From NCBI RefSeq assembly GCF_038025025.1, contig NW_027117348.1:62001-126000 (forward strand): a DNA stretch of 64,000 bases, read 5' to 3'. The notes beneath the pieces are model-generated. The model was not told where the DNA came from and did no database searches. It worked only from the letters and a program-made list of their open reading frames with translations. Below are positions 6,260 through 47,291 of this stretch, piece by piece (position 1 is the stretch's first letter; each line of letters opens with the position of its first letter). Position numbers and translations under genes: made by a program. Origin of the DNA: Phyllosticta citribraziliensis (taxonomy: Eukaryota).

Positions 6260-6718
6260 GGTGGGAGAAGCGGCGCAGGGGCGAGAGTCCTGTTGTAAGG
6301 AGAATGAGATCAGATCGCGTCAAATTCGTCCTGGAGTTGGTGTTCACCGCAAGTGCGCTAGGTGACGGAGGTGAGACTTTCCTGCCTTAGGGTTTAGCAA
6401 ACAGCAAAATCGTGACTGCACACGCACAAAAACTCACAAAGAGAAGCCGTAGTTCTTGGTGTAGATGAAGTGGATGAGGCTGATCCCAGCGGCAATGGAA
6501 AGCACATCGATGTCTGCGGTGGGAGCTCCGTTCGCAGCGCATTCGAAGGCAAAGTTGAGTGGCGAGCCCTGGCGTTCGACTTGGGGAAGTTTCAACTTCT
6601 GGAGGACACGGCGCGAGGTCTCATCCTGACTGCCGTTCCCCTGTATGCCCTGGTAGCCAGCAGTTCTTCAAAGGTCGACATGGAAGATGCGGGCATTGAA
6701 GGTTGTTTTTTGTAGGGG

Positions 6719-6768
6719 GTGCCCGCGGAGGTGTCGAAATGGACGTCCGGGGCACGTGACACCTGACT
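6719..6768 (+). promoter_or_regulatory. ~50-bp element with CCGCGG, GGACGTCC and GGCACGTGAC; inverted copy at 37046-37093
   Basis: Direct comparison: AGTC(A/G)GGTGTCACGTGCCC(C/T)GGACGTCCATT..CCGCGGGC is shared. Confidence 0.65.
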
Positions 6769-11224: not shown

Positions 11225-13552
11225 TGAGCCCTCCGACACGCAACAGGGAGTCTTAGAGAGAAAAGACTCGGACTACGACAGTGCGCAGGAAAAAATGAAT
11301 TAGAGTGTCGTTGCCCTGATGGTAACACATAGATAGCAGGCCTACATGTAAGTACTCGTAATCTATTTCCATTAGCACCAATGAAGCAAAATCTTGTGAA
11401 AACAGACCAAAAACACCCGCCGTGCATTCCATTTGTTAACAAAAGTCCTGCAATGACCTGAATTTGTACCACCACAGTCCTGCATGCGCATGCAGCGTCG
11501 CTTCGTTGTACGCGCAAGCCCCGCCACGCGGTCTGACAGCGGGCCCGATGCCTGAGACGGCAGGTCGGTCGGCGGTCCTGCAGGGATCGCGTGCAGCCGA
11601 CACCGAACCGTATCGCGACGACGTGTCGAGGAGAATGAGACCGCGAAATGCAATGGGTGCACTGCAGAAGACAGGAAAGTAATGTGACGGAGGTGAACGG
11701 TGGGTTGTGGGAGCGGTGGGGAGACTTAGGGGCCATGCGACCGGGGAAGCCTTGATAGCGGGATTTCGATTGGCGTTCTGGGTAGATGTGAGAGACTCCA
11801 GAGCTTGTTAGTCAATGAATGGTGTGTACTTGTTGGAGAATATTGTCCGCGTCTATCTTGACATTCGTGGCGCCATGAGCAGAAGAAATCAGCGGGTTCA
11901 GCGCCGAAGCCTGCTGCGCCTTGAAGAAGGAATTCGATGTGGCCCGATGCAATTAACGCCGTGCAAACCAAATGACGCGGGAATCAGCACTCTGGTGGAA
12001 GCGTTCCGACAAAACTCCCCTGCAAGTATACATGTGTAGAGCTGCCAGGAAAGACAAAGCCACGGGGAGGAGTGCAAACGCCTCCCGCTGCATCGTCACA
12101 GAAGAGCAAAGCCTTTGTTGTTTTTGAACGAAGACTGCGGCGTCTTTAAAAACTTGTCGGGCTTCCTGTGGGTTTGGCAGGCGTGTTAGCAATTGCTGAA
12201 TCTTTCCCATCCCGCTGGTTGAGCAGTGTCACGGAAGCACCAGGGGATGTACGAAGGGCGTGCTGGCGGATTTCTACACATCAGCCGCGGCTTTGGCTCT
12301 GGGGTTGGCGCCAGTGCAGCCTAGTTTTGCGGGTGTTTCGATCGCAGCGTGCAGTCCGCTGACATGAAGGCTGTTTGGAGCAACGAGGCATCCATTCTGT
12401 CCACAACAGGCGAAGTGACAAATCGGAGAGGACGGGACACAGAAGTTTCCGGGAGCAAAGCCACAAGACCGAAAAGAGGCCAAGTACCAAGACGAGCAGC
12501 CTGAACCGATTGCCGTACATTTGCAATCTGCTCTCTTGCCTTCGCGACTGCTTTGTGCCAGCGTTTGCACGTTGCTTCAATTCTGATTGCTGGCAGTTGT
12601 GCCGTTCTTTTGTGCTTGTTTTATCCAACATGTCCTCCATGGCAATCCTTTTGAAGGATATAAAAGGTCGCTGAGAAGTCCCTGGTCTTGTGCTTCTTCA
12701 CTGCCCAGCTGCAGTCTTTCAAATGCTCCTTGGTGCTTGTTTCTCTCTCCGCATGTCAAGTCTTTGGGTGTGGCTCCAGTTTTCGTGAGTGCATACAATT
12801 TATTTAGAGTTCCAGATCTTCTTTTGGTAGCATGGCGAAGGTTGCGGAACCCAGGGGTGTTTCGAGAGGCGCCAGAAAGTTTTGTGCTAGGGGGAGGGGC
12901 GGCGGTTCTTATGTCGCGTTGCTGCTGGTCTGTAGTGACATTCTGCTGCCCGATATTGGCTTGGGTTCTGTTCCTGGCTACGGTGTTAGCTTGTTCTTTT
13001 GATGGTCTGACAGTGGGACTCCATTCTGCTGAAGTGAACCTGTCTGCCGTGCGACAACGGGGATTTTGCGCCCTGCTTTGGCGACGGTCGGCCTGAAGCT
13101 CTCAAAGTCTCTTTGCCATTGCTTGCAGCGCGTGCTTTTGCTTTGGTGTCTGAAATATGCCAACTCCCGTTGGTTCCTCCCGAGCGAGTTTCAATGCACG
13201 TGACAAGCGCGTCGCGTCCCACGGTTGGTTTGTCACGCGGATTGTCCACTCGACCTCAACAAGGGAGAATCTATCAACACGCCGCCAAGATGCACTACTA
13301 GACCCTCACGCCAGTCGCACGCTTCGCAAACGCTCTTCCGAACCTACACCGCTTTCCCCAACTACCGGTCACCTCTGAGCCTTGGAGTAGCAAGCATACC
13401 ACCTCATTTCATTTCGAGCGCGTTACTGATCAGTTGATAGTCTTCACGACCGGGATAACGCATCCAAGGACGACTGCCGACCGCTTGAAGGCGCCCACTT
13501 CATACCTCACTCTTTGTTTCCTCCAGCAACCACATCGCGTCCAGCAGCCCAA

Positions 13553-16102: not shown

Positions 16103-16707
16103 ACGGCACGGTCTGCGGTGGTGGCTTCTCTTCAGCGACTTTTCATGGCGTTTAGCACAGTTACGAATGATATGACTTTTACACTACTGTCTTCTCCAAC
16201 AAATCATGCCCGTGATGTTGAAATTTGAGTGAAATCTTGCCAGCAGGTATCTGATGCAATCGACGAGCTCAGTCGCAAACCACCAAAAAGTGAGTAATTG
16301 GTCGCGGCCGAGGCGAATTTGCTGCAACGAAGATTGTGTCTTTGCAACTGCTGCCATGTACCTTTTTAGCATAAACCTTGTAGTGTGTACGTCGTTTCAT
16401 GTCCAGGCGTGGCGAAGACGTGCTTTGCAAAGGTGCACCGTATTCAAATTCTGATGTTGCGCAGATTTCCCAAAGCGGTAAAGCTTCAAGTCGCCGTGTT
16501 GTTGCTTTCGTCGCGCAGTTGGCGACCACAGCACCTCAACACCATCTCATTGGCAAAATCTCACCCTCCTCGAACAGAACTCGCAGCATTGCCCAATTTC
16601 TGTTCTTTCACCTTGATACAGTAAGCAGCATCAGCTCTTCGTTTCTCTCCGTTCCCGAACTTTTGCTGATATTCACTGAACAGCTCCCACGCCCATTCTC
16701 AAGCAAC

Positions 16708-17730
16708 ATGGCAACAAGCTTGGACAAAGCTTCGCAGCTCACCATGAGCATTGCCTGCTGGATCAAGCTGGGCTCTCAAGGTACCTGTCCCTCACCACGC
16801 CCATCCCAATCGCGCCCCCTTGCCGCCTCATCTCGACTCTACTAACTCAAGACAGAGGGCCTCAAACCCCAGCAATTCTGCAGCTGGGTCGAGACGATAG
16901 TGGAGGAGTGCGTCGGCCTCCAATCATGCAGTACCAGCTCCTCGACATCGAAGACCGCCGCGAACGCCGCCAGTCCCGTTGCCGTCATGGACGACTGCCA
17001 CGCCGCTGCGCCCAAGATCTACAACTTGGTCGCATGCCTGACCGACGAGAAAAGCACCAACGTCGCCGACACCGTGTCTACGCACCTGGACCGCGCCTTT
17101 GACGACCTGCGCCGTGCCTCCTGCACACTCACACAGCAGGGTCTGGAGGAGTTCCGGACGAGCAACGCCCCCCGCATGCTCTCAGGCTGCATCTTCCTCG
17201 AAATCCTATTCGAGGTGTCCCGCGTCTTTGAGGTTGGCAGGTTGGCCTGGCAGTACTTCGAGAGGGCGGCGGAGGCAGACGTCGTGTCAGGCTTGGTGGA
17301 GCTGTTGGACGTCAGGCCGTATGAGCAGCGGCTCTCCGCCACGAGGGGTCCGGGGAGCGTGGCGTGCGGTGTTTGCAAGCAGTCTGCGGAGCTGTCGATC
17401 GTCGTACGCGACGGCCAGCGCTTGATTGAGCCGCGAGCCTGGGCTGAGAACAATGACTTCGACGAGGGCCTCGCGGATTGGGATATGGTCCCGCGTGCCG
17501 GACATGGTGAGAGCGGAGGGCTTGGGGACTCCGCCATCGCGCTCAGGGGCTCCGACACGGCGAGCCTGTCCGACTCGGATGAGGACGACTTCGCCATCGT
17601 TGAACTGGGATCGGACTTCGGCGCTTTCTCTTTGGTCAAGACGCGCTGTGGGCACCTCTTTTGTGCGGAGTGCCTCGAGGCGTCGACGGAGCTGTCGGCC
17701 AGATGTCCCGTGTGTGGGAAGCTTTTGTGA
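16708..17730 (+). CDS. C3HC4 RING finger protein (copy 3); intron 16781-16855; ~90-aa acidic insertion in RING loop 1
   Basis: GTACCT..ACTAAC..CAG intron joins MATSLDK..GSQ to the long ORF in frame; CGVC..CGHLFCAEC..CPVC. Confidence 0.85.
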
Positions 17731-29605: not shown

Positions 29606-31121
29606 TTACCCAGTACTAGATACATTCACCTCCAGCATTCTGCCCCCACAAGTCCTGGTTTGGAAGGCTCCCTCCCCCCATCCTGGCTTCCCTATCCCAT
29701 CAAAATTCACCAAAGACTCTTCGATCTCGTCAATCGCTTCGAAATCTGCGTTGACGACAACGCAGGCTGGCTTCTCTTCCGCCCCGCCGTCGGATTCGAA
29801 GACGATCCAGGCTGCGTCTCCCTCATGGCCAGCCCAGCCTTCGTCACCAGCCGTGACAACCTTGACCTCAAGTTCCAAAACCTCATGACCGCATCCCGGC
29901 GCAGGTATTCTCTTCAAGAAGAGTTTCCCCTTGCCAGAATCGCGCCTGACCACCGCATTGAAGAAGTAGCCAACGGAAATGTCCTTGATGTTGGCAAACC
30001 TGGCAGCAATGACGGCCGCCGGACCCCAGTTGTGGCATCCCCCGATGCCCGACCAGCCGCCCCTATCTGGGACGCCCGTATCTATATCGTCTGCCTCGGG
30101 AATTGTGACTTTGTGGATGGTGGGCTGCGACTCAATCATTTCGAGTACCAGGCCCATCGGAATTCTTGGTACATGCTCGTCATCATTGCTCTCGTGGTTT
30201 GGATGGCGGATAGAGACGATGCTGAGTGTCTGGAGGGACAGGGTTGGAACTCGCACTGATTGATCATGTTAGAAATAACGTAACTTCAATGGTGAGGAGA
30301 GAACAAACAGTGAATGGTCGCACCCGCTGAAGTCAGGAAGTCGGACACAACAAGTTCCAAATGGCGCAGGCCTTGAAGTGACTTCAACATGGCCATCATA
30401 TCATATACTTCAGCCTGACTGTATAGCACAGAGGACATTCCGTAGCCCTCTCGCGTTGAAGTCGAGACGCGAGTTGCTTTTGGTGTGAGCTTCAAGAGAA
30501 AGCGAAACTCAACGCTCAGAATGAGATCCTTGAGGTAAACGAATTGAATTGCTCCGTTCTGCTGCAGGCATCCTTCCACCTTCTGGGCAAGCAGATCACC
30601 ACCGTCAATTTCGAGTCGACGCAGAGTTGCAGGCTTCAGGAGAAGTCGGGAGATTCCTTGGGCGATCTGCGCGAGCGAATCATCGGTAGAGATTGAATTG
30701 ACGTCCCAGAACTGGTGAATTGAAAGTGACCTGATGAAATGATGTCAGCCGGGTCTCTCTGAAGAACTGTCGGGGAAACTTACTGGATGTGTCTGAGGAA
30801 GTCGGGTGGCCGTTGAACAAGCGCAGTCTGCAAGCCCGGCGAATCCATCGTTGGACGATTTCGAGCCAATTGCGAGTAGTTGTGCGATTGGCCAGCAGAC
30901 ATCAAGTCGATTCTTCGGAAAAAGATTCTTTCCGCTAGCTTGCGAGCCTGCCAGCTCGCCTTCGAGAAAGCAATGAGGGCCGACATGCCGCAAGACGGGT
31001 CGTGCCTATCTGAGGTAAAGAGAAGCTGTTCCAAGACTCCTTGGATGAGTTCTTTGGGCAGTCTCATCAGCGGAAACGGCTGCAGAGTGCAGTCCTGCAT
31101 GGAGGAAGAGAGTTGGTCCAT
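29606..31121 (-). CDS. F-box array copy A (family 2), 3 exons; introns 30731-30783 and 30256-30323
   Basis: F-box PFPLMRLPKELIQGVL; exon 2 SLSIHQFW..LRRLEIDG; exon 3 PMGLVLEMIESQP..PAAVIAA; canonical splice sites keep the frame. Confidence 0.85.
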
Positions 31122-31222
31122 GTCGCTGGCGTGAGTTTGACCTTGACGAACGGGGTGGTTGAGGAGTGGTGGCAGAGGGGAGAAAGCTTGAAAGGTGCAA
31201 AGTGGTGGAGGGTTGAGATTTC

Positions 31223-31337
31223 ACAGCACCGGAGCCGACGTTGGCGAGGATACGCCCGACCGGCGCCACCCAAAACAGCCGTCACGTGCCGAGGTTGCGG
31301 CTGGGCCAACGCCAATGCCCTGAACCGCATCTCAAGC
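31223..31337. promoter_or_regulatory. Conserved upstream module of copy A (ACAGCACCGGAGCCG 31223-31237; GTCACGTGCC 31281-31290)
   Basis: Near-identical block upstream of copy B; motifs recur upstream of D, E and F. Confidence 0.7.
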
Positions 31338-31617
31338 TTCCCGGCAGCCCTTTTTGACACCCACTGCTGCATTGCCCGCGCCCGCGGTCGCGGCTTCACA
31401 GAGATCTGGTTTCTGGAGCAATGATCTCGAGTATAAGCCTCACCGGCCTGAAATTTCGAGAGTATTTATTCTCCAAGTAGACCTGGGATTTAATGGACAT
31501 GTTAATCGTCTGCAAGGACAGGATTGAAAATTATACTGTGAGCGTTGTGAAGTCAAGAAAGAAACTGTCTAGTAGATCTATATCCGCCCCTATAAATCTC
31601 GTCCCATCCTCCCACCC

Positions 31618-33086
31618 TCAAGTAGTGTACTCATCGGTGGCCCTGCAGTCCGCATTGACGGCGATGGAAGCCGCCTCGTCGTTCTCGTATACGATCCAGG
31701 CCGGAGCACCATCAGCCCCCTCGTAGACGACGTGGATGTCGTACTCCTCCGAAACCACGTTTGGATGGTCAAGGAAAACCCTCTGCAGCGTGATGGTGCT
31801 GCTATTCAGATTGCGCCACAGGGAAAACTTGCAGTACTTTCCGACGGTAATTTCCTCGACGTCAAGAAACCTGACGGCAAGGATAGCCGCAGGTAGCCAG
31901 TTCTGCCAGCCCTGGTCTTCTTGCCAGCGCTTGCGGCTTCCGTCCGCTCCCAGGAAGATGTTTCTGGCCCGAGGGATGGTGATACTGCGCGTACCGGGCT
32001 GCGAACCGATCACGTCAAGAAGGAGCCCCATCGGCAGCTTATCGTCGTATTCGTGAGGTCGTCGAAGGGTCGAGGGCATGTATTCGCGTTCTCGAGTGAA
32101 CTTCAGCGTGTCGAGGGAAAGTGCTGGGAGTTGGACTGTTGAATCATGTCAGCATCAGTCTTTTTTGAAAATGGAGAGCGACATACCATCGAAGGGACGA
32201 TCGAAGTCAGCGATGGTGAAGTCGAGATGGCGCAGTTTTCGAAGCGCCCCGCACGACTGCAGCAGCTCGTCCACTTTCTGCTTCCCGTAGTTGCGAAACT
32301 CCCTGTCGTAGCCCTCTCGCGGCATGTTGGAGAAGTGCTCGATGTTTGGAGCCAATTTGAGAAGGAAGCGGAACTCGACGCTGGCAACAAGCTCCTGCAA
32401 GTAGGGAAACCGAACGTCGGCGTCAGCCAAGAACTCTTCCATGTACTGGGCTAGGCGCTCGCTGCCATCGATTTCTAGACGGCGCAACGTTTTCGGCTTC
32501 ATCAGGAGCTGTCCAATGCTAACAGCAAATGTATACAAGATTGCGTCGTTGCCGATAGTGTCGATCTTCCAGAATTCGTGGATGGCAAGCTCCCTATTTC
32601 GGTCAGTTGGTTGAATCTGCGGGGATTCTCCTCGGAAACGTACTGAATGTGTCTGAGAAAGTCGGGCGGTGGGACCTGAAGCAGTGTTTGAAGGCGCTCT
32701 GGAGAAAAGCCTGGGTACCACTGGGCAAGACGCGCACAGTCAGGCCTCTCAATGTCCTGTACGTTCGCACTCGTCAAGAGCTGGACATCCAGGAAGACGA
32801 ACTTCTTGGCGATTTCACGAAGGTGCTTGCAGGTTTTCGAGAAAGCAACGATGTCCTCCTTGTCGACGGATCGTCTTGCCTCTCTGTCTCCTCGAACGTC
32901 CGCGAGCTCCAGACCACCAAATATACCGAAGATATTGATGTCGTTGGACGGATTTGCTGGCCCGGTATCTTGCACGAGGTGTCTGGCGACATTCTCGATG
33001 AGCTCGTTTGGCAGCTTCAGCAAAGGGAAAGGTCGCATCTGGTGGGCAGCAATCTCGAAGTCGGAAGTTTCCTGCATTTCAGGCAT
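31618..33086 (-). CDS. F-box array copy B, 3 exons; introns 32594-32643 and 32136-32186
   Basis: F-box PFPLLKLPNELIENVA; ELAIHEFW; LPAAILA; same intron positions and phases as A. Confidence 0.87.
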
Positions 33087-33261
33087 CCTGTCTCGCCAGG
33101 TTAGCTTTGTGGAAGTGCTCAGAAGTTTTCCTTGCTACTTACTTGAACGAGCAGCTATACTGACAGCAAGGTCGATGAGAGGAAAAGGGAGATTGGAAGA
33201 TGCAGGGTTGTGCAAGATCCGAGAGTGGAGTAAGTAAATTGACGGAGGGTGGAGGTATTTA

Positions 33262-33367
33262 ACAGCACCGGAGCCGGAGTTGGCGGGCGGAAGCGCACCC
33301 AAAACAGCCGTCACGTGCCGGAGTTGCGCCTGCGCCAACGTCAAGGCAGGGTATTGTATCTCACACT
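33262..33367. promoter_or_regulatory. Conserved upstream module of copy B (ACAGCACCGGAGCCG 33262-33276; GTCACGTGCC 33310-33319)
   Basis: Shares CACCCAAAACAGCCGTCACGTGCCG exactly with the copy A upstream region. Confidence 0.7.
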
Positions 33368-33869
33368 TCTCAAAGAATTTCTGTGTGGTAAATCCACTCA
33401 AGAATCGCCTGCTTCTGGTTTCGTAGGCAGATTCGACTCTCGTGACTTGGAACGCTGAAGTGTTCCTGTCGCGGCATCACTTTAAGAAAACGAGACCTCA
33501 AAATTTTGTGCTGGAAAATTGAGGATTCAAACGAAATGCGAGCTTAATTTCTCATCGGCGGAGATGCTATCTCATTCCAAACTCAGCAGGGTTCATTGAC
33601 AACCCTCGCTGCGGCAATGTCCTCCCTGCGCCTCATCCGCACACCAAGATGACCCTCCCATTGTCCATACAGATGCCCAAAAGTCTCGTATTTCCCTCCT
33701 CATCGACCTCCTGCTGCGCTTTTGTGATGGCGGGCAACCAGATCTTTTCACGGAACTCATCGGCGCCAGCTGGGTCGTTTGGCAATGGTTGATAGAGCAA
33801 CGTATGGACGAAGAAGCCGATGGAGGTCCGTCTTGGGCCTGATCTCCTTGTGCAGCGCGGATGGTCTCT

Positions 33870-34800
33870 TCACAGATTACAGGGCGTCTCGAGATTTTTG
33901 GCAGTGACTTCAGTGACCTTGTAGAGGACGCTGCGATCAATGTACCCATTCAAAGTAATGTGAACGCTGTTCGCTCGCTGCCGCTGGTTCTTGATTGCAA
34001 CGGTAACGTTAGGCGGATCCAGTTTGCATTGGCCAACAACGGGGACGACATTGCTGTCTCCTGCGAAATTGGCGTTCGTCAATGCGTCCCTGGTAATGGC
34101 GAAGCTTTCCAAGGGAAGAGAGATGTCGGCTGTGTTTTGACGTCAGATTAGAGGACTCGGGGAAGCAAACTAGCAAGACTCACTTTGGAACATGTTCTGC
34201 CCGTCGAACTCGGCGATCATGACCTCCAAGGTTCTCAGTCTGGTAAGAGACGGACAACGAGCGGGCAATTCTTCTTTGTCTTCCTGGGGGCATATAGGGA
34301 GGCCAGTGTTGTTGCCGGAGTGCGTCTTGTTTAAAAGGCGCAAGACGCCATCATCATTGATCAGGACCCTCATAGCGTCGATGGTCACATCGATATCGCC
34401 CGCGCTCGGATCGGAGCTTGTCCAGACCTGTTGTATTGCAAGGGACCTACGAGCTTGTCAGTTAACTGAATACCACCTGGATACTCGACGTACTGCGTAT
34501 GCGGAAAAGGCTTCAGAGGGAGGCTCCGAAACATCTCCTCTACGTCACGCGAGTTTGCGACCGGATCTCTTTGGACAACGCCGGCGAAGAGACGCATAAC
34601 GTTCGAGAGGACCCATGTGTATTGGTTCACAATGTGACAAGAGTGTCCTTTCCCTACGCGCATTCTCATATTCCACCGCGATGACAGCGTCTTCGAAGTC
34701 GCCCTCCGCAACCTTTTCCCCGATTCCAACAGCAGTTCGTTTGGTGGACTGAAGAGCGGGGACCGGGTGGATTCGTCGCGGACTTTTTGGTAGAGGCCAT
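33870..34800 (-). pseudogene. F-box array copy C, frameshifted and internally deleted; introns 34447-34493 and 34130-34183
   Basis: SPLFSPPNELLL then a frameshift to IGEKVAEGDFEDAV; exon 2 SLAIQQVW..LRTLEV lacks the central LRRLHIDG block; exon 3 is shortened. Confidence 0.75.
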
Positions 34801-35219
34801 CAAATGAGATGGCGGCAAAGTCTCGCCGGACAGTCGAAGATGGAGTCGCGGTGTCGTGAAGGCAGTATCGTGGGTTTTTGGTTGAGCTTTTTGAGATTGC
34901 GGTCAGCTTTCACATGTCGCAGTGTTTGGAGTGAATTCGGAGACCCAGATCATGTTGTTGTCGTTCAGGATGGCCTGTCGGCGTGCTACCGTCCGGCTGC
35001 TCGAAAAGTGGACAAGATTGAAAGCTTCGATTCGAATGGGATATGCGGGATCTGAATCAAATGTCCCAGAAAGCCGTGAAGCAGATGAACAATGAAGTTG
35101 TCAAGTCCAGCTTTGCAGAAACTGGCGTGTTGATGTCTCGGCATGCTGTCAAGAACCTGGAATGGATTGTGGAACTTTTTCTAAAGAGTCTCGTCCTCCT
35201 GCCCTGCCCCGTCTCTCCC

Positions 35220-36854
35220 TCAGCCGCCCAGCAGTGCTTTCAGGCGGGGGTTGCCCAGATTCACCTCCACAGAAGTCGGCCGTCCCTCCTCGTCGACGAT
35301 GAACGCGGTGGCCTTGGTGTCTGGCTCCCCGTGGGTGATGCTGAGAGTCAACGTGGCTCCCAGGATGTCCACGTTGCGCCTGTGCTTCATCGTCAAGATC
35401 GGCTCCTTCCAATCATCCCAGAGAGTGTGCCAGCAAGGCTCGGGGACTGGTTGCCACATCGGCCACCCGCTAGATATCGAATCATCATCCGCGATGAATC
35501 GTGGGTCACCTCGAGGGTTGTCGTCATCGTCACCTGCTGAGGAGTCGCCGCTCAGTCTGAGCACAGTCTGCTCTCCCTCCCGGCGAACGATGTCGACGAT
35601 GGAACTGCGCCCGACGAGGACTCTCTGAATCGTTGGAACCAGGGCGGCGATGATGGCGGCAGGGAGCATATCGCTGAGTCCACCCTTCCAGTCCCAAGTC
35701 CATTTGTCGTCGTCCAGAGCGTCGATCTTCTCCGGTCTTGGGATGTGAGCATCGACCAGACCCGGCTGCGAACGAATCATCCCAACGAGGAACCTCATGT
35801 TGACTCTTTTGCAGTAGATGTCTTCGTCCGCAGGCCCTTCTGCCGCTTCAGCGTGGTCCCAGTCGCCAGGAAAGTAGTGGCTCCGGAATTCCTCGTTCGA
35901 TAGGCTCAGGCTCGTGAGGGACAAGGGCGGAAGATCGACTGGTGATGGATGTTAGTCAGTGTCTTGGGAAACAAGTGTTGGGGCGACATACTGCGAAAGG
36001 GGCGGTCAAAGTTTGCAACGGTGAGTTGCAAGGTCCGTAGCTTTGGCAGCGACTGACAGAGCCGATAAAACTTTTGAATCATCGGCTCGGAGCACTGGCG
36101 CGAGATGGTTATGCATCCTGAGAACGTCTTGTTCGAAAGACGCTCGACATTGGGCGTATGCTCGAGAAGGAAGGACATCTCGATACTGATGATGAGCTCA
36201 GTCACGTCTCCCAGTGCTGCTGCTGGTTGTGCTGTCATGGATTGCTCCAGATTTTGTGCAAACTTTGCGTCGGCATCGAGGTGCAAGTGGCGGAGGGAGC
36301 TTGGTGCCTCAAGCAGTGCCTTGACGCCGTTGGTCATCCAGCTGGCGGAGCCCTGCCAAAATTGGTGAATCGCGAGTGACCTTTGGGCAACCATTAGTTG
36401 AAGTCCCCCGCGCTTTTGGATTTCAAAGGACATACCGCGTCGATTTGAAAAGCCACACCGGTGGAGCTTTGAATTCCGGCAGGACCGCTGTCGAAAATAT
36501 TCCTGGACGTCCTCCAACGACAAGAGGAGCGTTGTGCTGGAAGGCATCGCGGCTGAAGCAATATGTGCCATCGCCGTGGCCCCTTCTGAGAACGCGAACA
36601 GTCCTGAAGAGCCGCGGCTTCACAAGACGCCGAAGCTGCTTGTTGACCTGAGCGAGCGACACAAGAGCCCTGTATGGTCTGGACGATTCAGGGATGCCGT
36701 ACTCGTCATACACCGGCCTCCAGACTCCGTTCTTGATGCCATCCTCGATGTCGCATTCCACGACCTTGTCGATGACACACTTGAGAAGATGGTCGTCGAG
36801 TCTGAGAAGTGGGAAGGGGCGAGAGTCCTGGCGGGCTGGAATTTTCGCCGGCAT
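35220..36854 (-). CDS. F-box array copy D, 3 exons; introns 36381-36435 and 35938-35991
   Basis: PFPLLRLDDHLLKCVI..LAQVNKQLR; SLAIHQFW; DMLPAAIIAA; WDDWKEP. Confidence 0.87.
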
Positions 36855-37045
36855 CGTGGGAGGTAGTCGTGATGTTGTGGAAGGTACGGTACGTCTCGCT
36901 GATCGGGGAAGCTGTTTCGGGCGAGATGGTGATGGAAACCTGAATATTTAACGAGATTCGAGATTGGTGGAGTGGAAGAGCGAGGTCAAGGTCGAAGTCG
37001 TGGGGCTGCCAAGCAGCAGAGTTAGGTGCCGCCGCGTGGTGGTCA

Positions 37046-37093
37046 AGTCGGGTGTCACGTGCCCTGGACGTCCATTCGGATGCCCGCGGGCGC
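37046..37093 (-). promoter_or_regulatory. E-box-containing element upstream of copy D (GTCACGTGCC 37054-37063), homologous to 6719-6768
   Basis: Direct sequence comparison; includes the GCCCGCGGGC palindrome. Confidence 0.65.
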
Positions 37094-37110
37094 GACACCG
37101 ACGTCCGGTT

Positions 37111-37221
37111 CTCGAGCAGGTCCTGGGGATAGCCGTGGCTCCTCGCAATAGTTGCAACCCATGAAGCAACCGTGTTGGTGTCTTCCTTGTATTTGTGATA
37201 GCTGGACTTGAGGAACTTCAA
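37111..37221 (-). pseudogene. Isolated N-terminal fragment of a DUF6604-family gene
   Basis: LKSSYHKYKEDTNTVASWVATIARSHGYPQDLL matches the recalled DUF6604 start motif YxxYKxDTxxVAxWLxxxAxxxGYPxDLL; similarity then stops. Confidence 0.6.
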
Positions 37222-37497
37222 GTCGCCCAGCGAGGGAGACAAAATTTCTCGCCGCTATCCCCCATTTCTATATCACCAAGGACGGCTTTGCAGAGGCTGA
37301 TCAGCTGGCGCGCTTGTGGATTTTACTACGAATATGACCGGGTTTCCATCATGGATTAAAAGACACTGTATTCTGCAAAGAAAGACTCAGAGAACGAATT
37401 CTAAAGCCTGAAATATACTATCCAGCAAAAGAGAGATTCGAAATCGAGGACAAACAAGACCCTTCTCATGTACCTCTCCCTCTCCCTCTCCCCTGCC

Positions 37498-39036
37498 TCA
37501 GAGGTATTCGACCGCGTCGATCCGTGGGTTGTCCACGTTCACCTCGATCCTGGTCGGCCTATGGTCCTCGTCCGTGATGAACCTTGCCGGGTGCACGTCT
37601 GGGCCCTCGTGGACTACATGGAGAGGCAGCACCACTTCCTCTTCCGCCCGATTGTAGACTTTCTGCCTGTTGACGAGCGGTTCTTTCCAGTGGTCCCACT
37701 GCTCGAACCAGCTGGCCGGTCGTTCTGTTGACCAATCCGCAACTGGAACGTCGGTCAACTTGAGCACCATCTTGTTCTCGCCTCGGAGGATTTCGACCAT
37801 CGAGTCTCGCCGGATCTTGATCCTCTGGAGGTTGGGGACTTTGGCAGCTATGATGGCAGCAGGGACAATGTCGACCAAAGCGAATTGTCTGTCTGCCGGG
37901 TCGCCTTCCTCCTCCCAGGCATCGTTCGCTCCAAGCCCGAGAGTCAGGCTGCCAAGCCACGGAATTTGCAACTCGACCAAGCCTTTCTGAGAGAGGGCCA
38001 TGTTGATGATTCCACCGAGGGGCATGTGGAGCTGGTCTTCGTCGATTGTGTCGGACATGCTTCGGGGTGCCTCTCCGGTGATGGCCAAAGTCTCCAAGGA
38101 CAAGTTGGGGATTCGAAACATGGCGGGATCGTGAACTGTTGGATAGAGTCAGATGAGATCTGTGAGAGACATTTCTTGCTTTACTTACAGTCCCTCCTCC
38201 TGTACGGGTCGAAGTCCGCGACCGTGAGCTCAAGGGTCTTCAGCTTTTGGCGGTTCCGGCAGGCGTCGAGGAACTCGCGTACGTGCGACATGGGGTATAT
38301 GCGAGGATCTTGTTCAACCCCCGAGAACGCTTTGTTTGACAAGCGTTGGATGTTGGGCATATATTTCAGCAAAAAGGTCATCTCAATGCTGATGGTGACC
38401 TCGGTCAGGGTGCTGAAGTCGATCGGCGGTAGCACTTCCATCGCGTCCTCCATGTAGTTGGCGAGTTTTGTATCCCCGTCGATGTGCAGGCGCCGAAGTG
38501 ATCGCGGGGCCTGAAGCAGCTTGATGATGCCATTGGAGATCCACACGTCGCTGAGATAGCCACGGGTCCAGAACTGGTGGATTGCCAAAGAGCTATTGCT
38601 TCTCGTCAGTTCAAGCTCGCTTCTACCTGGATTCGAGGACGTACCTGGTGCCGGCAAAGAGATGAACCGGCGGGCGACAGAAGATGTTCATGACTTCCTC
38701 GGAAATCGCGTAGGGTCTGCCTTGGGCGAGGGGAGAAAACCGTTGTTGGACGTCCCGGTAGGTCCTGTCTCCTCCCTGGCGCTTGAGAAGGAAGACGGTC
38801 CTGAATATGCGACCTTTGATCAAGGATCGCAGACTCTTGTTGACCTGGGAGAGCGACATGAGTGCCCTGACTGGCAAAGGGAATGTATAGTCCGTTGCCG
38901 TGGCTTCTTCAATGTCGCATTCGACGACCTGGTCGATGACGACTTTCAGAATGACGTCGGGAAGATCCAGGAGCCTGAACGGATGCTGCTGGCGGGCTGG
39001 AACTTCCGAGATGGTGGGCGCAGAGTGAGACGACAT
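37498..39036 (-). CDS. F-box array copy E, 3 exons; introns 38593-38644 and 38136-38188
   Basis: PFRLLDLPDVILKVVI..LSQVNKSLR; SLAIHQFW; DIVPAAIIAAKVP; WDHWKEP. Confidence 0.87.
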
Positions 39037-39060
39037 GGTGTATACGGTGGGATGTCGGTA

Positions 39061-39157
39061 TGAGGGAAGCGGAGTAGAGTGGAACGATTTCGTTGTGAAG
39101 GAAGCGGAGTAGAGTTGAACGATGTCGTGATGAAGAAATCGGAGCGGAGTGGAATCG
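39061..39157. repeat. 35-bp tandem repeat x~2.7 in the 5' leader of copy E
   Basis: Units 39061-39095, 39096-39130 and 39131-39157, core GAAGCGGAGTAGAGT(G/T)GAACGAT. Confidence 0.8.
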
Positions 39158-39241
39158 CAAGGTCGAGTTCCAGGTCGGAGTGGTTGTTGATGTCGGAGCC
39201 AGTGCACGTGCCGGAGCGAGGAATCGGGCGGTGCGCCGGGC

Positions 39242-39279
39242 AGACACAATGTTAACACCAAGACACAGTGTTAACACCA
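39242..39279. repeat. 19-bp tandem duplication AGACACA(A/G)TGTTAACACCA containing the TGTTAACA palindrome
   Basis: Two units, one mismatch. Confidence 0.85.
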
Positions 39280-39759
39280 CAACAGCGCCGAAGTGTTATT
39301 CTGGTTGCGAGGCTCGCTTCCATCAAGAAGACTTCCCAATACTGCGACCGATGCTCCACAGCCAGCTCTACAGGAAGACCCTGAAGCTGAATCATCTTGC
39401 CGGAGCTTCCTACTGACGAGATGAGAAACGACACCAATTCAAATATATTCGAGGAGCTTCTCCTCCTCCTATACGTGACAAAAGGCCTGAATCGAGGGGT
39501 TCAACCTCCTTTCGGCTGTCGAATATCACTGACTAGTTGGCGTGGTTGCTTATGCAAAGAACAACATCCAAGAAGATCACGAAAGCCTTAAAGAATGGCA
39601 TTGAAAGCAAGTGTTCTGTTTTCGAAGGAGGCTAAAGACTTCATACCCCTTTCCCATTACCGCAAAGCATCCACCCATTAGGCCATCATCAGTGAAGAAA
39701 AGAAAGCAAAAGGAGCAAGCCGCCGGGGTCGTCCGAGCATCATGAAAAAAAAGAGGTCT

Positions 39760-41354
39760 CTACGGCGCTAGGTCGACCACCTCGATGAAAGGATTCAGAA
39801 TGTTGACCACGACTGTCTGTGGCACTTCCTCATCATCCTTCTCAATGTACGCAGCCGCGTCGCCCTCGACGTGATCGACGCAGAGGACGACCTCTACCGA
39901 AAAGTCCGAAACGGCCTCCTTATCGACGCGCTCGTGGTGGTGGACAAGCGGTTCCTTCCAAGCGTCCCACCGGTGAGTCCAGAGGTGGGACGTCTCATCG
40001 TGGTAGTAGCTCCAATAGCTCCTCCCGGACCGAGGCGTGTAGGCCTTGTTCCTGGTCAGTCGCAGGCGCGTCGTGCCCGAGGCCTTGCGAGTGATGTCGA
40101 CAGTGGCATGCGGTCCGACGAACACTCGCTTGATGTTGCGGACTTTGGCGGCAACGACTGCGGCCGGCAACAGATCGGTGAGCTCGTGCTCCCACTTCCA
40201 GTGGATATCGGTGTCAATGTTTCCGAGTGCGATATCTTCGGGCTCGGGGATTTGGTACTCCTCGAGCGCGGGCTGGGAGCGGGCCATTCGCAAGACCAGG
40301 CCCATGGTGACTTGCCCGTCGGCATCGACATAGAAGTCGTCGAAGCTTGGGACTGACTCTCTGATAAAGGACAGTTTCGTCAACGCCATGGGTGGAAGGA
40401 CGCCTGTTTGACCGTGTTAGTATTGGCAATTCAAAGAAGTGGGTAGAACTGCGCAACATACTTGCGGCCATGACGCTGTCTCGCCTTTCGTCGTATTGGA
40501 AGTTCCGGATCGTCAGCTCCATGGTCCGGAGCTTTGGCAGAGACGAGCACATGTCGAAAAAGTGGTTTACTTGTGCTGTCGTATACGCGCGCAACCAGTC
40601 GCTGCTTTCACCCGTCGTACGGCCCATGAGCGTCTTGTTTGATAGGCGCGTGACGTTGTGTGTATACTTCAGAATAAAGGCAAATTCGACGCTGATGATG
40701 ATCTCCTCAACGTTTGCCAGAGCTACTCTTGCCGCTGGCATGAGCTCCAACTCGTGCTCCAAGGCCGTGGCGAATGCGTGCTCACCATCAAGATGAAGCC
40801 GACGGAGCCTCTCAGGCGCTTGCATGATGGTACGTAAGCCTGTGGCAATCATGCGCAGAGCCCAAGCCTCGTCGGCGGGGAGGCAGCCATTTGCGTGCCA
40901 AAACTGGTGGAAGGCCACAGACCTGTTGCCCAAGTTAGTAAGAATCGTTTCGAATTAGGGGCGGCGGAGCCACTGACCTGGTCTTCCTCAGGTGGTGCAG
41001 ATCAGGCTGCCCGAAAAACTCCAAGATCTCCGGCGAGTCGACGGCCAGGTTGCGCTGGGCAAGCGGAACGTAATTCTCGCAGACATGCTCGAGAGGCCTG
41101 TCCATCTTCCTCATGATGCTGACCGTCCTGAAGACTGACTCGTCGCAAAGCTGTCGGAACTTGTGGTTGGTCTGGCGGAGGGGAAAGACACTCCGGTTGG
41201 ACGGCTGAGTCCTGTTGTCTCCGACGGCGTCGTCGATATCGCCTTCCTCCACGTGGCGGACGATGCGAAGGAGGAGCTCGTCGGGGAGCTTGAAAATGAC
41301 GCAAGACGCGGTTCCGTTGCGGGCCATGGTAGCAGTGGCAGAGGTAGTGGACAT
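39760..41354 (-). CDS. F-box array copy F, 3 exons; introns 40923-40977 and 40404-40461
   Basis: IFKLPDELLLRIV..LRQTNHKFR; SVAFHQFW; DLLPAAVVAAKV; WDAWKEP. Confidence 0.87.
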
Positions 41355-41562
41355 TTTGGAGCGATTGATGTCGGTATAGAGCAGATAGTGAGGGGGTTGA
41401 TGTATAGGCAGCGGAAGACGGTTGGTGGTGTATACGGAGTGATGGATGGAAAGCTGAAAGTTGATCGGGATGATGGTTTTTGAGAGGGAAAAAGTGGTTG
41501 ATAGCGAGGTTTGAAGGCGGTATATTCCTGCAAGGTTGTGGCAGAAGAAATTTTGGCAAACT

Positions 41563-41625
41563 CGGCTCCGGTGCTGTCAGTCGTGCAGTGCGATGGGCGC
41601 CCGCAAGTGCACCCTGGCACGTGAC
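41563..41625. promoter_or_regulatory. Upstream module of copy F with both motifs inverted (CGGCTCCGGTGCTGT 41563-41577; GGCACGTGAC 41616-41625)
   Basis: Exact reverse complements of the A/B motifs, in the same order relative to the gene. Confidence 0.7.
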
Positions 41626-42312
41626 GACAAAACTGCCATGCCGTGGACCGGACTGCACAATAACAGGCTGACTAACAATATACTGACCTGAGCTGAACTC
41701 AAGGTCTCTCCTATCTGGATTCCTGGAAATGGAGGTAAAGTTCAGGGAGAATTGACCCCTTTTGTATCTAAAAGAGAAGGTATACCGCCGCCTTCAAAAG
41801 CAAAGTCCATTGCTGAACCCAAAGGTTTTCATCTGCAATCATGGATTGGAAGGAAGAAGCCTAGCATCTGAAGATCCAACCAAGAGACAACCATCAACGC
41901 CTTAAACGCCATGGCGCACTCTGCTCGCACTGTGGGCAGCCTGGAATCTGGTGGCTATTGTTTGTAGACGACGCGGCGCGGGAGCTGCCGAAGCACGCGA
42001 TCATGTGTGGGAGTTTGGTCCGTTGCTGGGACAATTGAGCTGCTAAGACGGCTTGAGGACGCGGATGGATGGGTGGTGCGGCTCGAGGAGTTCGATGGTT
42101 GACCGCGTCCACGGCCGCCGCGGGTGGCTGGTCTCGTCGGGGACGGTATCATCGTTGGTGTCGGCGGGCAACTGTCGACGCTCTTGGCGTCGCGTCGCTC
42201 TGACGAGCTTCAGGAGGCTGCACATAATTAGACTGGGGGAGTCAGTATTTTAAAAGAGGAGCCAATAATCTAGCAGTCTTCTCCGACAGGAGGTGAGGTC
42301 CCGCCCGGCAAG

Positions 42313-42402
42313 TGGCTCAATGATGAGAAGGAATCCGGTGTCGTATGTTGCTACCAGAGTTGCGAACGTGGCAACATCTTGTAGCGGTTGGTAGTCCTTG
42401 AT
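42313..42402 (-). pseudogene. Captured ~90-bp fragment of a RAD3/XPD helicase gene
   Basis: IKDYQPLQDVATFATLVATYDTGFLLIIEP closely matches the recalled fungal Rad3/Rad15 segment (IEDYQPLQEVATFATLVATYEKGFLLILEP); flanks are unrelated. Confidence 0.7.
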
Positions 42403-42552
42403 ACATAGAATAAAGTCACAAAGGCCCTTCGTGAGCGACATGAAGAGTAGGGTTGAGACTGCTGAACGCTATGTACTTGGGGCTGAAAACAGTCTGCAAA
42501 TTGAATGTGCCCCCCTGAATCCCGAGTGCCGTCGAGACGTTCCGTTTTGGTA

Positions 42553-43736
42553 TCATGGAATGTCCCCTTCGTCGCGCATCTCGATCAGCTCATGGTTCAT
42601 GTTTACCACGACTGCAGTGTGCTTCCACCTCCCATCCGTGTCCATGGCCATCTCGATGAAAGCAGGGTACTGGAAGTTGCCGTAGTAATTGATGTGGAGG
42701 GGGAGCTCGGCCCAGATTTCGCGTCTCGCGGTCCAGTGCCGATTGCGAGCAACCACCGGTTCCTTCCAGCTGTCCCATTTGTGGATCCAAAGGTCGCTTC
42801 CAAAGGGCTGGTAGGGGAAGCCAGGCCGAGGTCGGGGTCTTTGGCTGCGACGTGTTTCTGGCTCCAAGTTGTCGCTCATCATCCGCAGATGCCTCATGCC
42901 CAGTCCATCATGAAGGACATCGACGGTGACATTCTTTCCCACGTGTATGCTTCGTAGATTCGGTACTTTGGCCGCAATTATTGCCGCGGGCAGCATATCC
43001 ACGATTTGGCCTGACGGCGGCCATTCGATCTCAACTTCAAACGCCCCAATCATGACCAGATCCGTCTCCGGGATTCTGAATTCACGCAAGTTTGGTTGGG
43101 AGCGGGCCATGTTCAGAAGCACACCCAGCGGAATCGGGTCTCCAAAGCCACGGTCAACCTGGTAGTCTTCGCAGCTTTGGACGACTTCCCTTGCGACGGC
43201 TAGTTTTTGCAGCCCCATGGTGGGGAGGACAGCTACTCACGTGCGTCAGCCTCAGAGTTACGAATGTCTCAGTCGTTCTGAACAACATACCTCGAGAGAA
43301 GGCGGGACCCTTGAACGAATCAATGTTCAGCTCCATCTCTATGAGCCGCGGCAAGCGAGAACAGAGCCCAAAGAACCTTGTAACTTGCTTCATCGAGTAT
43401 CTACGCAAAACATCACTGCTGGCACCTGTGGTGCGGCTCATAAGCGTGTTGTTCGATAGACGCGAGACGTTGGGCGTGTACTGCAGCATGAAGTCAAACT
43501 CAATGCTGAAAACAATCTCATCGAGGTTGGCCAGTGCTGCCCGAGCCGCCGGGGAGGATTGCAGCTCACGCCTCATGTACTGAGCGAAGTACTTCTCTCC
43601 GTCGATGTGCAGACGTCGAAGTTTCTTCGGTGCTTCAATCATCAGGCGGAGACCCTTGGCAATCATCTTCATGGCGCAGGTGTCCTCGAGACGGGTGCAG
43701 CCGAACGTGTGCCAGAATTTGTGGAAAGACAGGTTC
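42553..43736 (-). pseudogene. F-box array copy G: intact exons 2-3 (intron 43233-43290) but no F-box exon 1
   Basis: NLSFHKFW..LRRLHIDG..DMLPAAIIAAKVP..WDSWKEP; upstream of the intron-1-like stretch (43737-43782) the frame hits TGA within 7 codons; first ATG at 43672. Confidence 0.7.
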
Positions 43737-44172
43737 CTAGAGAAATTAGTTGAATTCCGTTCCTTGGACAGTCCAATCTTACGTGGTGCTTCGAGCAGTC
43801 CAAATTCACCACGAAACGCAGCCCCAGATCTTGTTCACGTGAGGAGTTTGAAGACTCCGTTTTCTCTTCGTGGCCTTGCGGGAAGTTGAACGAGTCTTCT
43901 GAAAGGATGCCGTGGTCGTATTGGTCGAGCCACTGCTGCTTCTCGTTGGGTTGGCTGGGTTCGTGATGACTTCACAGGTTGTTAAACAGGCTGCGCAGGA
44001 CTCTTGCGCTTGATCTTGGACTGACTGGATGGAGTGTTGCGCTCATCGGCTTCGCGGCCTGCAGAGACAGTCAGTGCATGGCTTTCTCTTGCTCGCACGG
44101 GTGAACTTACGAAGCTGAGCAGCATCGGGCGGGATGTTCTCCTCTGATGGATGCGTGGGCGTCTTCCAACGG

Positions 44173-44295
44173 CTACTCTTTGATGCGGGGGAACTTGGTG
44201 GCAATTGCGCCGGCTGGGAGCATGTCGACATTTCGAGTAAGCCACCTCCAGTTGTCCGTATCGTGGGGCGTTCCAAGGTAGATTCCTTCGGGCCT
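44173..44295 (-). pseudogene. Orphan exon-3 remnant of another array copy
   Basis: RPEGIYLG..DTDNWRW..VDMLPAGAIATKFPRIK aligns by eye with exon 3 of F (EPEDIALGNIDTDIHWKW..DLLPAAVVAAKVRNIK). Confidence 0.65.
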
Positions 44296-44372
44296 TGAAG
44301 TGAGAAAGGTTTCATTACTGTACCAAAAACCTCTCTGGGACTGTGAAAAAGAAAGGAGAATGTCGCCCCGTC

Positions 44373-45865
44373 TCAACTACCAAATTTTCGAATGATGGGG
44401 GAATGCAGATCCACGATGACTGCGAAGGGTCTGCCGAATTTCGTCCAGTCAATCCACACCGTTCTCTCCTCGTCGTCGCCGTAAGCAAATTCAAGGTCTA
44501 AGAAAATCTCCGACGGGACGGCGCACTGCAGCTGCGCGTAGACCAATGGCTCTTTCCAAGAGTCCCACTCGTCCTGCAAGCAAATCGGCTTCACCACCTC
44601 TAGTGGCAATTCTATCTGGTCCGCAGGCACGAAATAGGTGCTGTGCTTGAAACCAATGGTCTTCCCCTTGACCTTGACCACGTCGAATATCGAGGTGCGC
44701 CCGACGTGTATACGCTGGATCTTTGGTGCTACAACGGCGATGATGGCAGCAGGGAGTATATCACTGCGCTCGTCGACTTGTTCCACGTATTCGGCGAAAT
44801 CCATCTCGACGCGCTCAGGAAGGGGAATCCGGATCTCAACCAGGTGAGGCTGCTTCTGGATGCATCGTAAAATGTCTTCCAAGGGGACAGACTCCGACGC
44901 ATTTAGCGGCGAGTGTTCGCTTCGTACTGTATCGCTGCTGATGGTGAGGGTCTCCAGAGACATTCTTGGGAGGTGAACTGCGAACGAATTAGCGGAGACG
45001 GTCAGATACTCACGCACGACTTACATCTGGAGTGGCCTTGAAAATCGACAGCGGTGAGCTCCATGTTCTTTAGCTTGGGCAGGCTCTGACAGACGGCAAA
45101 AAATTGAGAGACCTGTTCTTCGTTGTAGAAGCGTTGCCGGTAGTTGAGTCCGCTTCCCGAGTACGGTTTGTTGGAAAGTCGCTCGACATTCGGGGTGTAC
45201 TGGAGCAAAAAGCACATCTCTAGGCTGAGAACAATCTCTTTCACGTTGGCCAGATTGACCGGCCGCCTGTTCATCTCGGACTCGAGAGATATAGCCAAGC
45301 TCCAGCCTCCGTCAATGTGCAGACACCGGAGCATGTTCGAGCTGTCCATGATCGACATCAAAGTCCTCGGAATCCAGATGAAGTCGTTTGGAGTAAACTG
45401 CCAAAACTGGTGGACGGCGAAGCACCTGTCGCAATAATCAGTGAGCTGAAGCTTTTCCAGCAAGGGTCCGTGATGAACTCACTCGAGTCTCGAAAAAAGA
45501 TGCAGAGGAGCATTTCCGAAACGCTCATGGAACGGGGCGATGTGCGGCATCGGATTTCCCTGAGAAATCCCAGAATAGAACTGGAAAAGGCCCTGGTTGC
45601 GGCCTTCGCTCTTCCTCAGAAGGCTGAGCGTCTTGAACATCCTCTCCACGCAGACAGAGCGAAGGCGCTTGTTAACCAGGGAGAGCGCCATCAAGGTCCT
45701 CTTTGGCCGTCGTCCGCGGCGCTGAATTGTGTCGTCCGTGTCGGCGTTGGCAACTTCGTCGGCTACTTTGAGCAAGATCTCGTTGGGGAGTTTGAGGATT
45801 GGGAACACCGGGTATCGCGTCGTTTTCGAGGAGAATGGCTTTTCGGAAGGAGCTTGGAACGACAT
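44373..45865 (-). CDS. F-box array copy H, 3 exons; introns 45426-45482 and 44978-45024
   Basis: FPILKLPNEILLKVA..LSLVNKRLR; CFAVHQFW; DILPAAIIA; WDSWKEP. Confidence 0.87.
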
Positions 45866-47291
45866 TGTTGCGGTAGAATTTGTCGTGAGAAGAGGGTTGC
45901 AGAGTAGAAGTTGTGTTGTGGCCGAGATGTTTTGGTCAGAGGCCAGCGTTGGACACGAGACTTGGCACTACAGGCGCACACATCTCAAAATAACACTTCG
46001 AGTGTCAATTCGACGCCTTCCGTACGTACTGCCGGTACCGATTTAGCAGCCCGGAGAGGACTGTCCACAAAATTAGTCCGGGCGCTTTTCACTGTTACGC
46101 CCTCGACATACTGGTACCCTTTCCTTGCCATCCAACCATCTCAGTCCGTTTGGCATCAATTTGGACCCCAAGATTCCGCCTTTGGTCACAGCTTGCTGAC
46201 TTCGACCTCTCAGGACTCACAAGACGCGCTCTGATCGACCTCGGCCTCCTCGCAAACCCGCGTCCGGACTTCTGTGGTATTCCATTACAAGGAGCAAAAG
46301 AAGACGTCCTAATTGAGCTGATGGATCGCAGACTTGCCCTGGTCGGGAATGATATGTGCGGTAGTGGAGGAAATATACAAACAGCATTGTAGTCGAAGGA
46401 GTCTCGCGAATTCGTCAAGTCAACGTGCGACGCAATTTTGGACAGGGGAGACACCCAAAAGCAACATTATATATGGCCAGCATGCAGTCGAAGGAATAAG
46501 AGAAGATTTCGGCCAAGCTTTTACGCGGCAAGATCTTGCAAATATACGGAAGACCGAAAATGCAATTAAAGCAAAGGTTCATGGTCTTTTCAATAAATCC
46601 ACGCCGGTCCAGCAATCTTTTTGCAGTTATCAAGAAAAACTCCTCCCACATCAAAAGAACAGCAAAGCCAAATAATCCAGGGAACATACAGCTAACGAAA
46701 CCACAGAACATCTTCAGCAACACACCAACAGCCGCTCTACACAAGCCGAGAATCCAGAGCCAAGTCTCGCCCCGCAAAGAAGTAGATTTGAGCCACTTGG
46801 AAGATTCAAAAATCGTCACGACAATACGGAATCAAGCAGCCCAGCCTTCGAAGCTTCGAAGGCTCAACTGTACTCGACTCCGTATTGTGGCAGAGGTGCC
46901 TTTTTCTTCCTCGGTCAAAAACGCCATCGCGCTCCCCAGAGAGCAGCAAACACCATTAATGAAAAAAGAAAAGAGCGCAGACAGCAATAAGGACAGCAGA
47001 CCAATTCCCAGCACGCTACACCACGCAGTTCGACCGAAACAAAACGAAGAGAAGCGGGATTAGGCGAACGACGCGAAGGTCGATGGAAAGTTGGGGTGCT
47101 GACGCCGGTCCTGATGCTTGATATGCTCGACATGCCTCGCTTTTCCTCCAGTCGAGCGCCGCATTCGCTCTCTCCCTGCCCTCCCTCCAACCCACCACCA
47201 CAACCACCACACCCCATCCCCCTCCTCATCAAAACAACACCTCCCTCCCAATCAAAAAGTCAAAACAAAGAGGCAGCAAAACAAAACAAAA

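Follow-up and report, generated by a model that had tools for sequence, protein, structure and literature searches.

Candidate factor-binding elements conserved upstream of a tandem F-box paralogue array in Phyllosticta citribraziliensis

Known promoter systems and the F-box array

The hexamer CACGTG is the core site of the bHLH protein Cbf1 and in yeast is joined by a flanking RYAAT recruitment motif to make a composite site, according to the available part of PMC3737730. Zinc-cluster sites are built of CGG triplets that are inverted, direct, everted, or overlapping as CCGG, as described in the part of PMC10954478 that was available. Words resembling both kinds of site stand upstream of genes in a head-to-tail array of eight F-box paralogues, copies A to H, in a stretch of 64,000 nucleotides (nt) from Phyllosticta citribraziliensis (contig NW_027117348.1, positions 62,001 to 126,000), here called the window. 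These are an E-box word, distal to the gene, and a CGG-rich 15-mer, proximal to it. An earlier note made from the letters alone had described them as a shared two-motif module, inverted in place in one copy, and every string it listed is present where it was placed. All positions below are window coordinates, and occurrence counts and expectations refer to the whole window.

The distal element resembles the Cbf1 E-box of the yeast Met4-Met28-Cbf1 regulon in its palindromic CACGTG, in the GTCAC on one half, and in its 5' intergenic position. As in the composite yeast Cbf1 site (PMC3737730, available part), further conserved bases flank the E-box in A and B. Unlike the Cbf1 E-box, GG flanks the other half and the extra bases, GGCTGTTTTG or, in the D type, GGACGTCC, are not RYAAT. 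The putative targets also differ from those of the yeast regulon, being F-box genes rather than sulphur-metabolism genes. 

The proximal element resembles Zn2Cys6 sites as the available part of PMC10954478 describes them, as CGGCTCCGG holds CGG-N2-CCG, CGG-N3-CGG, and an overlapping CCGG. It departs from them in a conserved tail, TGCTGT, that falls outside the CGG rule, and its 15–23 kept positions are long for one dimer. To our knowledge, no described zinc-cluster factor has the exact word of CGGCTCCGG. When the full-text literature was searched with the 9-mer of this element, the matches listed were, judged by their titles (animal cells, human or viral proteins), primer- or linker-type uses.

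For the flipped state of copy F the closest model is the four-point template switch (PMC5453318, available part), since here too ~16–23 nt appear replaced by their reverse complement with the neighbours left in place. In the available part of that source the model is shown between close genomes with a known ancestor, whereas the present paralogues are saturated and any switch points invisible. A single switch would also not suffice, as F would need two separate flips.

Tandem paralogues retain part of the parental promoter, and enhancer-type sites tolerate a flip. Compared with such ordinary retention, the case here is extreme relative to coding divergence, and one element type is common to non-homologous genes. 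The result is a well-supported phylogenetic footprint in paralogous promoters, of an ordinary kind and not a new type of system. New here are a variant of the proximal element in copy H, a D-type block 30 kb away, and an E-box upstream of a RING gene.

Two elements upstream of the array genes

On balance, the reading leaned towards here is that two factor-binding elements upstream of the array genes are under purifying selection. The first would be an asymmetric E-box, GGCACGTGAC, which stands 160–272 nt ahead of the ATG in copies A, B, D, and F, has a variant in E, and most likely binds a bHLH dimer. The second would be the CGG-triplet-rich CGGCTCCGGTGCTGT, placed 33–43 nt closer to the gene in these copies except D, diverged in H and present as a half in E; a zinc-cluster-type factor, or two adjacent factors, would most likely bind it. 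These assignments to bHLH and Zn2Cys6 proteins are inferred from resemblance to published consensus forms, and joint regulation or co-induction of the array genes, as the earlier note proposed, is likewise an inference. Both elements would act at the DNA level and independently of orientation, because F carries both flipped with order and spacing kept, and tolerance of inversion suggests recognition as double-stranded DNA. At least one further ubiquitin-ligase-type gene of the window, perhaps two, may also use the E-box form. Coordinates of all elements are collected in Table 1.

The proximal word, ACAGCACCGGAGCCG on the plus strand, was sought at up to two mismatches and has three matches in 64 kb, all of them exact (31223 and 33262 on the plus strand, 41563 on the minus strand), against 0.15 expected; none of 100 shuffles reaches three. 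In gene direction it reads CGGCTCCGGTGCTGT in A and B and ACAGCACCGGAGCCG in F, where 16 exact nt are common with A (19/21 over 21 nt). A and B thus carry the exact 15-mer proximally and the E-box word distally, in agreement with the earlier description. Inside the 15-mer lie CGG-CT-CCG and CGG-CTC-CGG, copy B reading CCGGCTCCGG, so that two CGG triplets are present in the inverted as well as the direct layout that characterise the Zn2Cys6 site form.

A search with the B 17-mer at up to two edits matches only A, B, and H in the window (null mean 0.10), which makes the word TTTAGCAGCCCGGAG proposed earlier for H a true relative. No E-box was found in the H promoter. In E the plus strand reads CGGAGCC-agt-GCACGTGCC, as had been noted, and the 15-mer is absent from the D promoter. 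The tree of the array divides (A,B) from (D,E,F,G,H) with 100% support and joins F and G as sisters. Carriers of the proximal element fall on either side of this deepest split (A and B against F and H), which makes it probably ancestral to the array and older than its diversification. An exact 14-mer at 23048–23061, TTGCCAAAATTTCT, is common with the sequence directly after the flipped 15-mer of F (blastn E 0.098), probably by chance.

The E-box word in its plus-strand form, GTCACGTGCC, is exact at five places: 31281, 33310, and 37054 on the plus strand, the last being the D word exactly as first reported, and 41616 and 6751 on the minus strand. Its 9-mer GCACGTGAC has six matches against 0.79 expected, a number reached by 1 of 100 shuffles. 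Copies A, B, D, E, and F all have the palindromic CACGTG core in their upstream DNA. A T flanking the core (TCACGTG) is a Cbf1-type preference, and it occurs on one half-site in A, B, D, F, and at 6751 and 13196, though not in E (GCACGTGC). A further CACGTG at 43836, upstream of G, was rejected as a promoter site; it probably sits in the frame that continues the decayed first exon of that copy.

Two further words lie close to these elements. A perfect palindrome with an ACGT core, GGACGTCC, stands 3 nt from the E-box in the D block (37066–37073) and in its copy outside the array (6743–6750), and is a possible second site within the D-type block. Correction for the number of words tested leaves TCGACCTTG, a word common to B, D, and E, without significance.

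Table 1. Positions of the array, of the conserved elements, and of related sites in the window
Feature	Position	Strand	Details
Head-to-tail array of eight F-box paralogues	29606..45865	-	open reading frames (ORFs), Pfam, tblastn map, tree
ATG positions	A 31121, B 33086, D 36854, E 39036, F 41354, H 45865	-	
Copy C, pseudogene	~33600-34900	-	
Copy G, 5' part decayed	42553 to at least 43741	-	
Copy A, proximal island, 29 nt	31218..31246	-	26/29 with B, E 0.002
CGGCTCCGGTGCTGT in A	31223-31237	-	-102 to -116 from ATG
Copy A, distal island, 45 nt	31267..31311	-	41/45 with B, E 1e-10; 25-nt exact word common with B
GGCACGTGAC in A, then GGCTGTTTTG	31281-31290	-	-160 to -169 from ATG
Third common word TCGACCTTG in B	33167..33175	-	between proximal element and ATG; also D 36987-36995, E 39158-39166
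Copy B, proximal island	33257..33285	-	15-mer 33262-33276, -176 to -190 from ATG
Copy B, distal island	33296..33340	-	E-box 33310-33319, -224 to -233 from ATG
Copy D, E-box block	37046..37102	-	GGCACGTGAC at 37054-37063, -200 to -209 from ATG
Copy E, GGCACGTGCA, 3 nt, GGCTCCG	39194..39212	-	half proximal element, A/B orientation; -158 to -176 from ATG
Copy F, proximal element, reverse-complemented relative to gene	41557..41577	+	15-mer 41563-41577, -209 to -223 from ATG
Copy F, E-box GGCACGTGACG, opposite to gene	41616..41626	+	-262 to -272 from ATG, 38 nt distal of 15-mer
Copy H, diverged proximal element CTCCGGGCTGCTAAAT, A/B orientation	46041..46056	-	-176 to -191 from ATG
Copy of D E-box block	6712..6768	+	between minus-strand ORF (ATG 6259) and plus-strand F-box gene (ATG 7510)
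GCACGTGAC preceded by T (TGCACGTGAC)	13196..13204	+	349-357 nt before first ATG (13553) of RING-finger ORF

Conservation against a saturated background

The argument for selection rests mostly on conservation measured against a saturated background. Array copies are 24–45% identical in protein over the middle and C-terminal domains, with branch lengths of ~0.6–1.4. Their fourfold sites, compared where the amino acid is the same, are 0.16–0.50 identical among paralogue pairs, against 0.28 expected from composition. The elements are conserved far beyond this neutral expectation. The upstream islands of A and B agree at 91% (distal) and 90% (proximal) of positions, while the best coding windows of the same lengths reach 33/45 and 21/29. 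For the inverted element the agreement is 15/15, as compared with 12/15 (A-F) and 11/15 (B-F) in the best 15-nt coding windows, and no inverted exact word common to 1.5-kb coding regions is longer than 11 nt, versus 15–16 nt for the F element. The claim that the motifs are better conserved than the coding DNA therefore holds for A, B, and F, taking islands against best coding windows.

Whole promoters were compared by local alignment of six 400-nt upstream regions in both orientations against 100 shuffles. The A-B alignment scores 108 where the null maximum is 27, and the inverted A-F and B-F alignments each score 34, with null maxima of 24 and 28. The D-E alignment (29 against 24) and the inverted E-H alignment (25 against 24) are barely above the shuffles, and the remaining 10 promoter pairs do not exceed them. 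Between A and B the two islands are separated by a diverged, indel-bearing spacer, a pattern that fits a footprint rather than one conversion tract. Elements lie 100–270 nt from the downstream ATG versus 330–930 nt from the stop of the upstream gene, which supports the conclusion that they track the downstream ATG.

All 6- to 8-mers were also counted in seven 400-nt upstream regions and in 400-nt chunks of the window, the chunks including the array itself. The top 8-mer, GGCACGTG, occurs in five of the seven regions (p 2.2e-6 among 2523 words), and the top 6-mer, CACGTG, in six of seven (p 2.9e-6 among 1342 words), a count that includes G. GACCTTG and GGCTCCG are not significant after correction.

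Two other accounts of the islands were rejected. A coding or upstream-ORF reading is incompatible with the 10-nt indel that shifts the frame between A and B and with the inversion in F. Repeat-induced point mutation has CpA/TpG as its target dinucleotide; escape from this process was discarded as both words hold CpA/TpG and the G+C content of the array equals that of its surroundings.

Order, spacing, and the flip in copy F

In A, B, and F the 15-mer is gene-proximal and the E-box distal. Read in gene direction, A and B show GGCACGTGAC, a gap of 43 or 33 nt, CGGCTCCGGTGCTGT, and 102 or 176 nt to the ATG, respectively. The F promoter shows GTCACGTGCC, 38 nt, ACAGCACCGGAGCCG, and 209 nt to the ATG. 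Each word in F is thus the exact reverse complement of its counterpart with the order relative to the gene unchanged, just as first described. A single inversion of the whole module was considered and rejected, as it would have reversed the order.

The two flips do not carry equal weight. The 15-mer equals its own reverse complement at only 2/15 positions, so its flip in F is real, and this flip with the order kept excludes a coding or RNA-level role. Only three positions separate the E-box 11-mer from its own reverse complement; being nearly palindromic, it could be flipped by three substitutions, and its orientation is far weaker evidence. The earlier note had taken the independent inversion of each motif as an argument for selection. 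In-place inversion alone is not proof of selection, as template switching makes inversions without it.

In A and B the word GGCWGTTTTG directly adjoins the E-box towards the gene, and in F it adjoins the side away from the gene; its orientation is the same in all three. This placement indicates that the F promoter was either rebuilt or went through more than two small rearrangements. The spacer between the elements in F resembles the B spacer in the same orientation (15/19, p 0.013 before correction for four tests).

Short inverted repeats surround the E-box in each of these promoters. A 7-nt repeat, CGTTGGC/GCCAACG, brackets it in A (31239–31245/31305–31311) with one arm in each conserved island, and the B counterpart is shifted by one base (33279–33285/33333–33339). 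In F a different 10-nt inverted repeat (90%) is at the same position.

Points against selection and rival explanations

Several observations weigh against two selected elements. CACGTG itself is not enriched, with 14 occurrences in the window against 20.3 expected, and without G the 6-mer loses its significance after correction (arithmetic estimate). Furthermore, the upstream regions share descent, so that the word counts measure conservation rather than independent enrichment. The shared module is found in A, B, and F but is complete in only three of the eight copies, which makes its original description overstated: D is without the proximal element, H is without the E-box, and C and G have neither in promoter position. 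Fifteen invariant positions in three lineages exceed the typical demand of a single factor and could mean recent copying. Lastly, no bHLH or zinc-cluster domain was found among 35 ORFs scanned with Pfam, and a cluster-specific regulator adjoining the array was dropped as a candidate on this result.

The strongest rival holds that the identical words are young patches copied by gene conversion or template switching, with the flips in F as neutral micro-inversions. All three promoters carry the 15-mer unaltered, without a single degenerate position, as recent copying would have it. Template switching is documented in the available part of PMC5453318 to produce short inversions in place and to invert spacers that lie between short inverted repeats, and such inversions are likewise reported in the parts of PMC8604942 and PMC8755829 available. 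The E-box is flanked by short inverted repeats of this kind, conserved between A and B, and the likeness of the F and B spacers is what an in-place flip predicts, within the limits of its p value. However, conversion requires flanking homology and the flanks are saturated, while the repeats are no more frequent than chance (~0.3–0.7 expected per 150 nt, an estimate). Two separate flips in one promoter, each framing exactly one conserved island, are unlikely without selection. The diverged versions in H and E also point to old descent with decay and not to recent copying. Template switching may well have produced the F flips, but even then the survival of the words would be unexplained. As a full account, neutral copying is considered unlikely.

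A second rival accepts functional DNA but not activator sites for shared induction, and proposes instead a chromatin-opening factor, a boundary between tandem genes, or repressor sites. For the last of these, reverse-strand CCGGAG fits SYGGRG, which we take to be the CreA/Mig1 consensus, although this is a low-information match. Cbf1-type bHLH proteins are general nucleosome-displacing factors according to the available part of bioRxiv 10.1101/2022.03.17.484790. The E-box also occurs beside unrelated genes, and in a head-to-tail array each promoter also borders the gene upstream. Against this, the E-box has retained long flanks (45 nt in A and B, 31–57 nt in D and the block at 6712) that exceed a generic CACGTG site, and the proximal element is found nowhere else in the 64 kb. 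This alternative is regarded as improbable.

Chance resemblance of GC-rich words in GC-rich upstream DNA has next to no likelihood as a general account: it holds for the CACGAG once proposed as an E-box variant in H (29 in the window), for the supposedly decayed CACATG of C (22), for the two words that failed correction, and for two metagenome matches described below, but the shuffles of the 15-mer, the shortness of inverted words between coding regions, and the blastn E values of A-B and of D with its distant copy rule it out for A, B, F, and D.

Related sites outside the array

Positions 6738–6768 match the D block at 29/31 (blastn E 4e-7) from a distance of 30 kb. Extended to 57 nt at 75% identity (6712–6768), the pair is the longest inverted pair in the window. 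The block sits 742–798 nt before the F-box ATG at 7510. Apart from the F-box, the product of this gene shows no similarity to the array proteins (best E 0.07), and it belongs to another family. The site at 13196, upstream of a RING-finger ORF, faces its gene in the direction in which the E-boxes of A, B, and D face theirs. All six GCACGTGAC sites of the window thus lie in the 5' DNA of F-box or RING genes.

The neighbourhood contains two paralogous plus-strand F-box genes of this other family (ATGs 7510 and 9668, region 7510–11224) and three RING-finger ORFs (13553, 15392, and 16987, region 13553–17730). With these genes besides the array, much of the left and middle of the window encodes ubiquitin-ligase-type proteins.

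A metagenome scan with the composite A/B pattern gave two loci, both of ~66–67% G+C and of bacterial appearance; one falls within a reading frame. They were taken as chance matches and rejected as relatives of the module.

The F-box paralogue array

Pfam F-box models were matched by all four N-terminal ORFs tested (B, E, F, and H), and no significant Pfam match was obtained for six middle and C-terminal ORFs of the array. The window is ascomycete DNA, and the F product is 100% identical to the NCBI protein J3D65DRAFT_670612 of Phyllosticta citribraziliensis. Outside this species the closest protein found comes from P. citricarpa and has 41% identity to the F product; in tblastn against the window its matching segments in F and G are 32–57% identical. 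Among literature on Phyllosticta and F-box proteins, judged by title or abstract, none concerned the array family.

Copy G seems to have lost a clean F-box exon, its 5' region being a mosaic of decayed pieces. This 5' part also holds a piece of the C-terminal domain of another copy, and frames are interrupted by stops at 43738–44100. Between the stop of H and G, positions 44179–44361 contain a C-terminal-domain-like fragment of the family (tblastn E 3.5e-4).

Directly upstream of the E ATG, three tandem 35-nt units at 39051–39155 are 77–86% identical to the reference unit. They occupy the interval between the ATG and the TCGACCTTG word, so that the 5' leader or core promoter contains a local tandem duplication.

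Meaning for the array and for Phyllosticta

The footprint is useful for promoter annotation and for the design of reporter or DNA affinity purification sequencing (DAP-seq) experiments. A bolder proposal, put forward tentatively and judged unlikely to hold as a whole, is that a lineage-specific two-element promoter code marks a private Phyllosticta set of ubiquitin-ligase adaptors made up of the array, the second F-box family, and the RING gene. Its elements would be flipped singly with order and spacing (33–43 nt) kept, and template-switch micro-inversion would be the likely source of the variants exposed to selection. Such a code, if true, would be a natural experiment in a promoter grammar that ignores orientation but keeps order. 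More generally, true factor sites would make this promoter array a clear natural example of a promoter in which sites were inverted one by one, and would give a handle on when fast-evolving, unannotated F-box substrate adaptors are switched on in a citrus-associated fungus.

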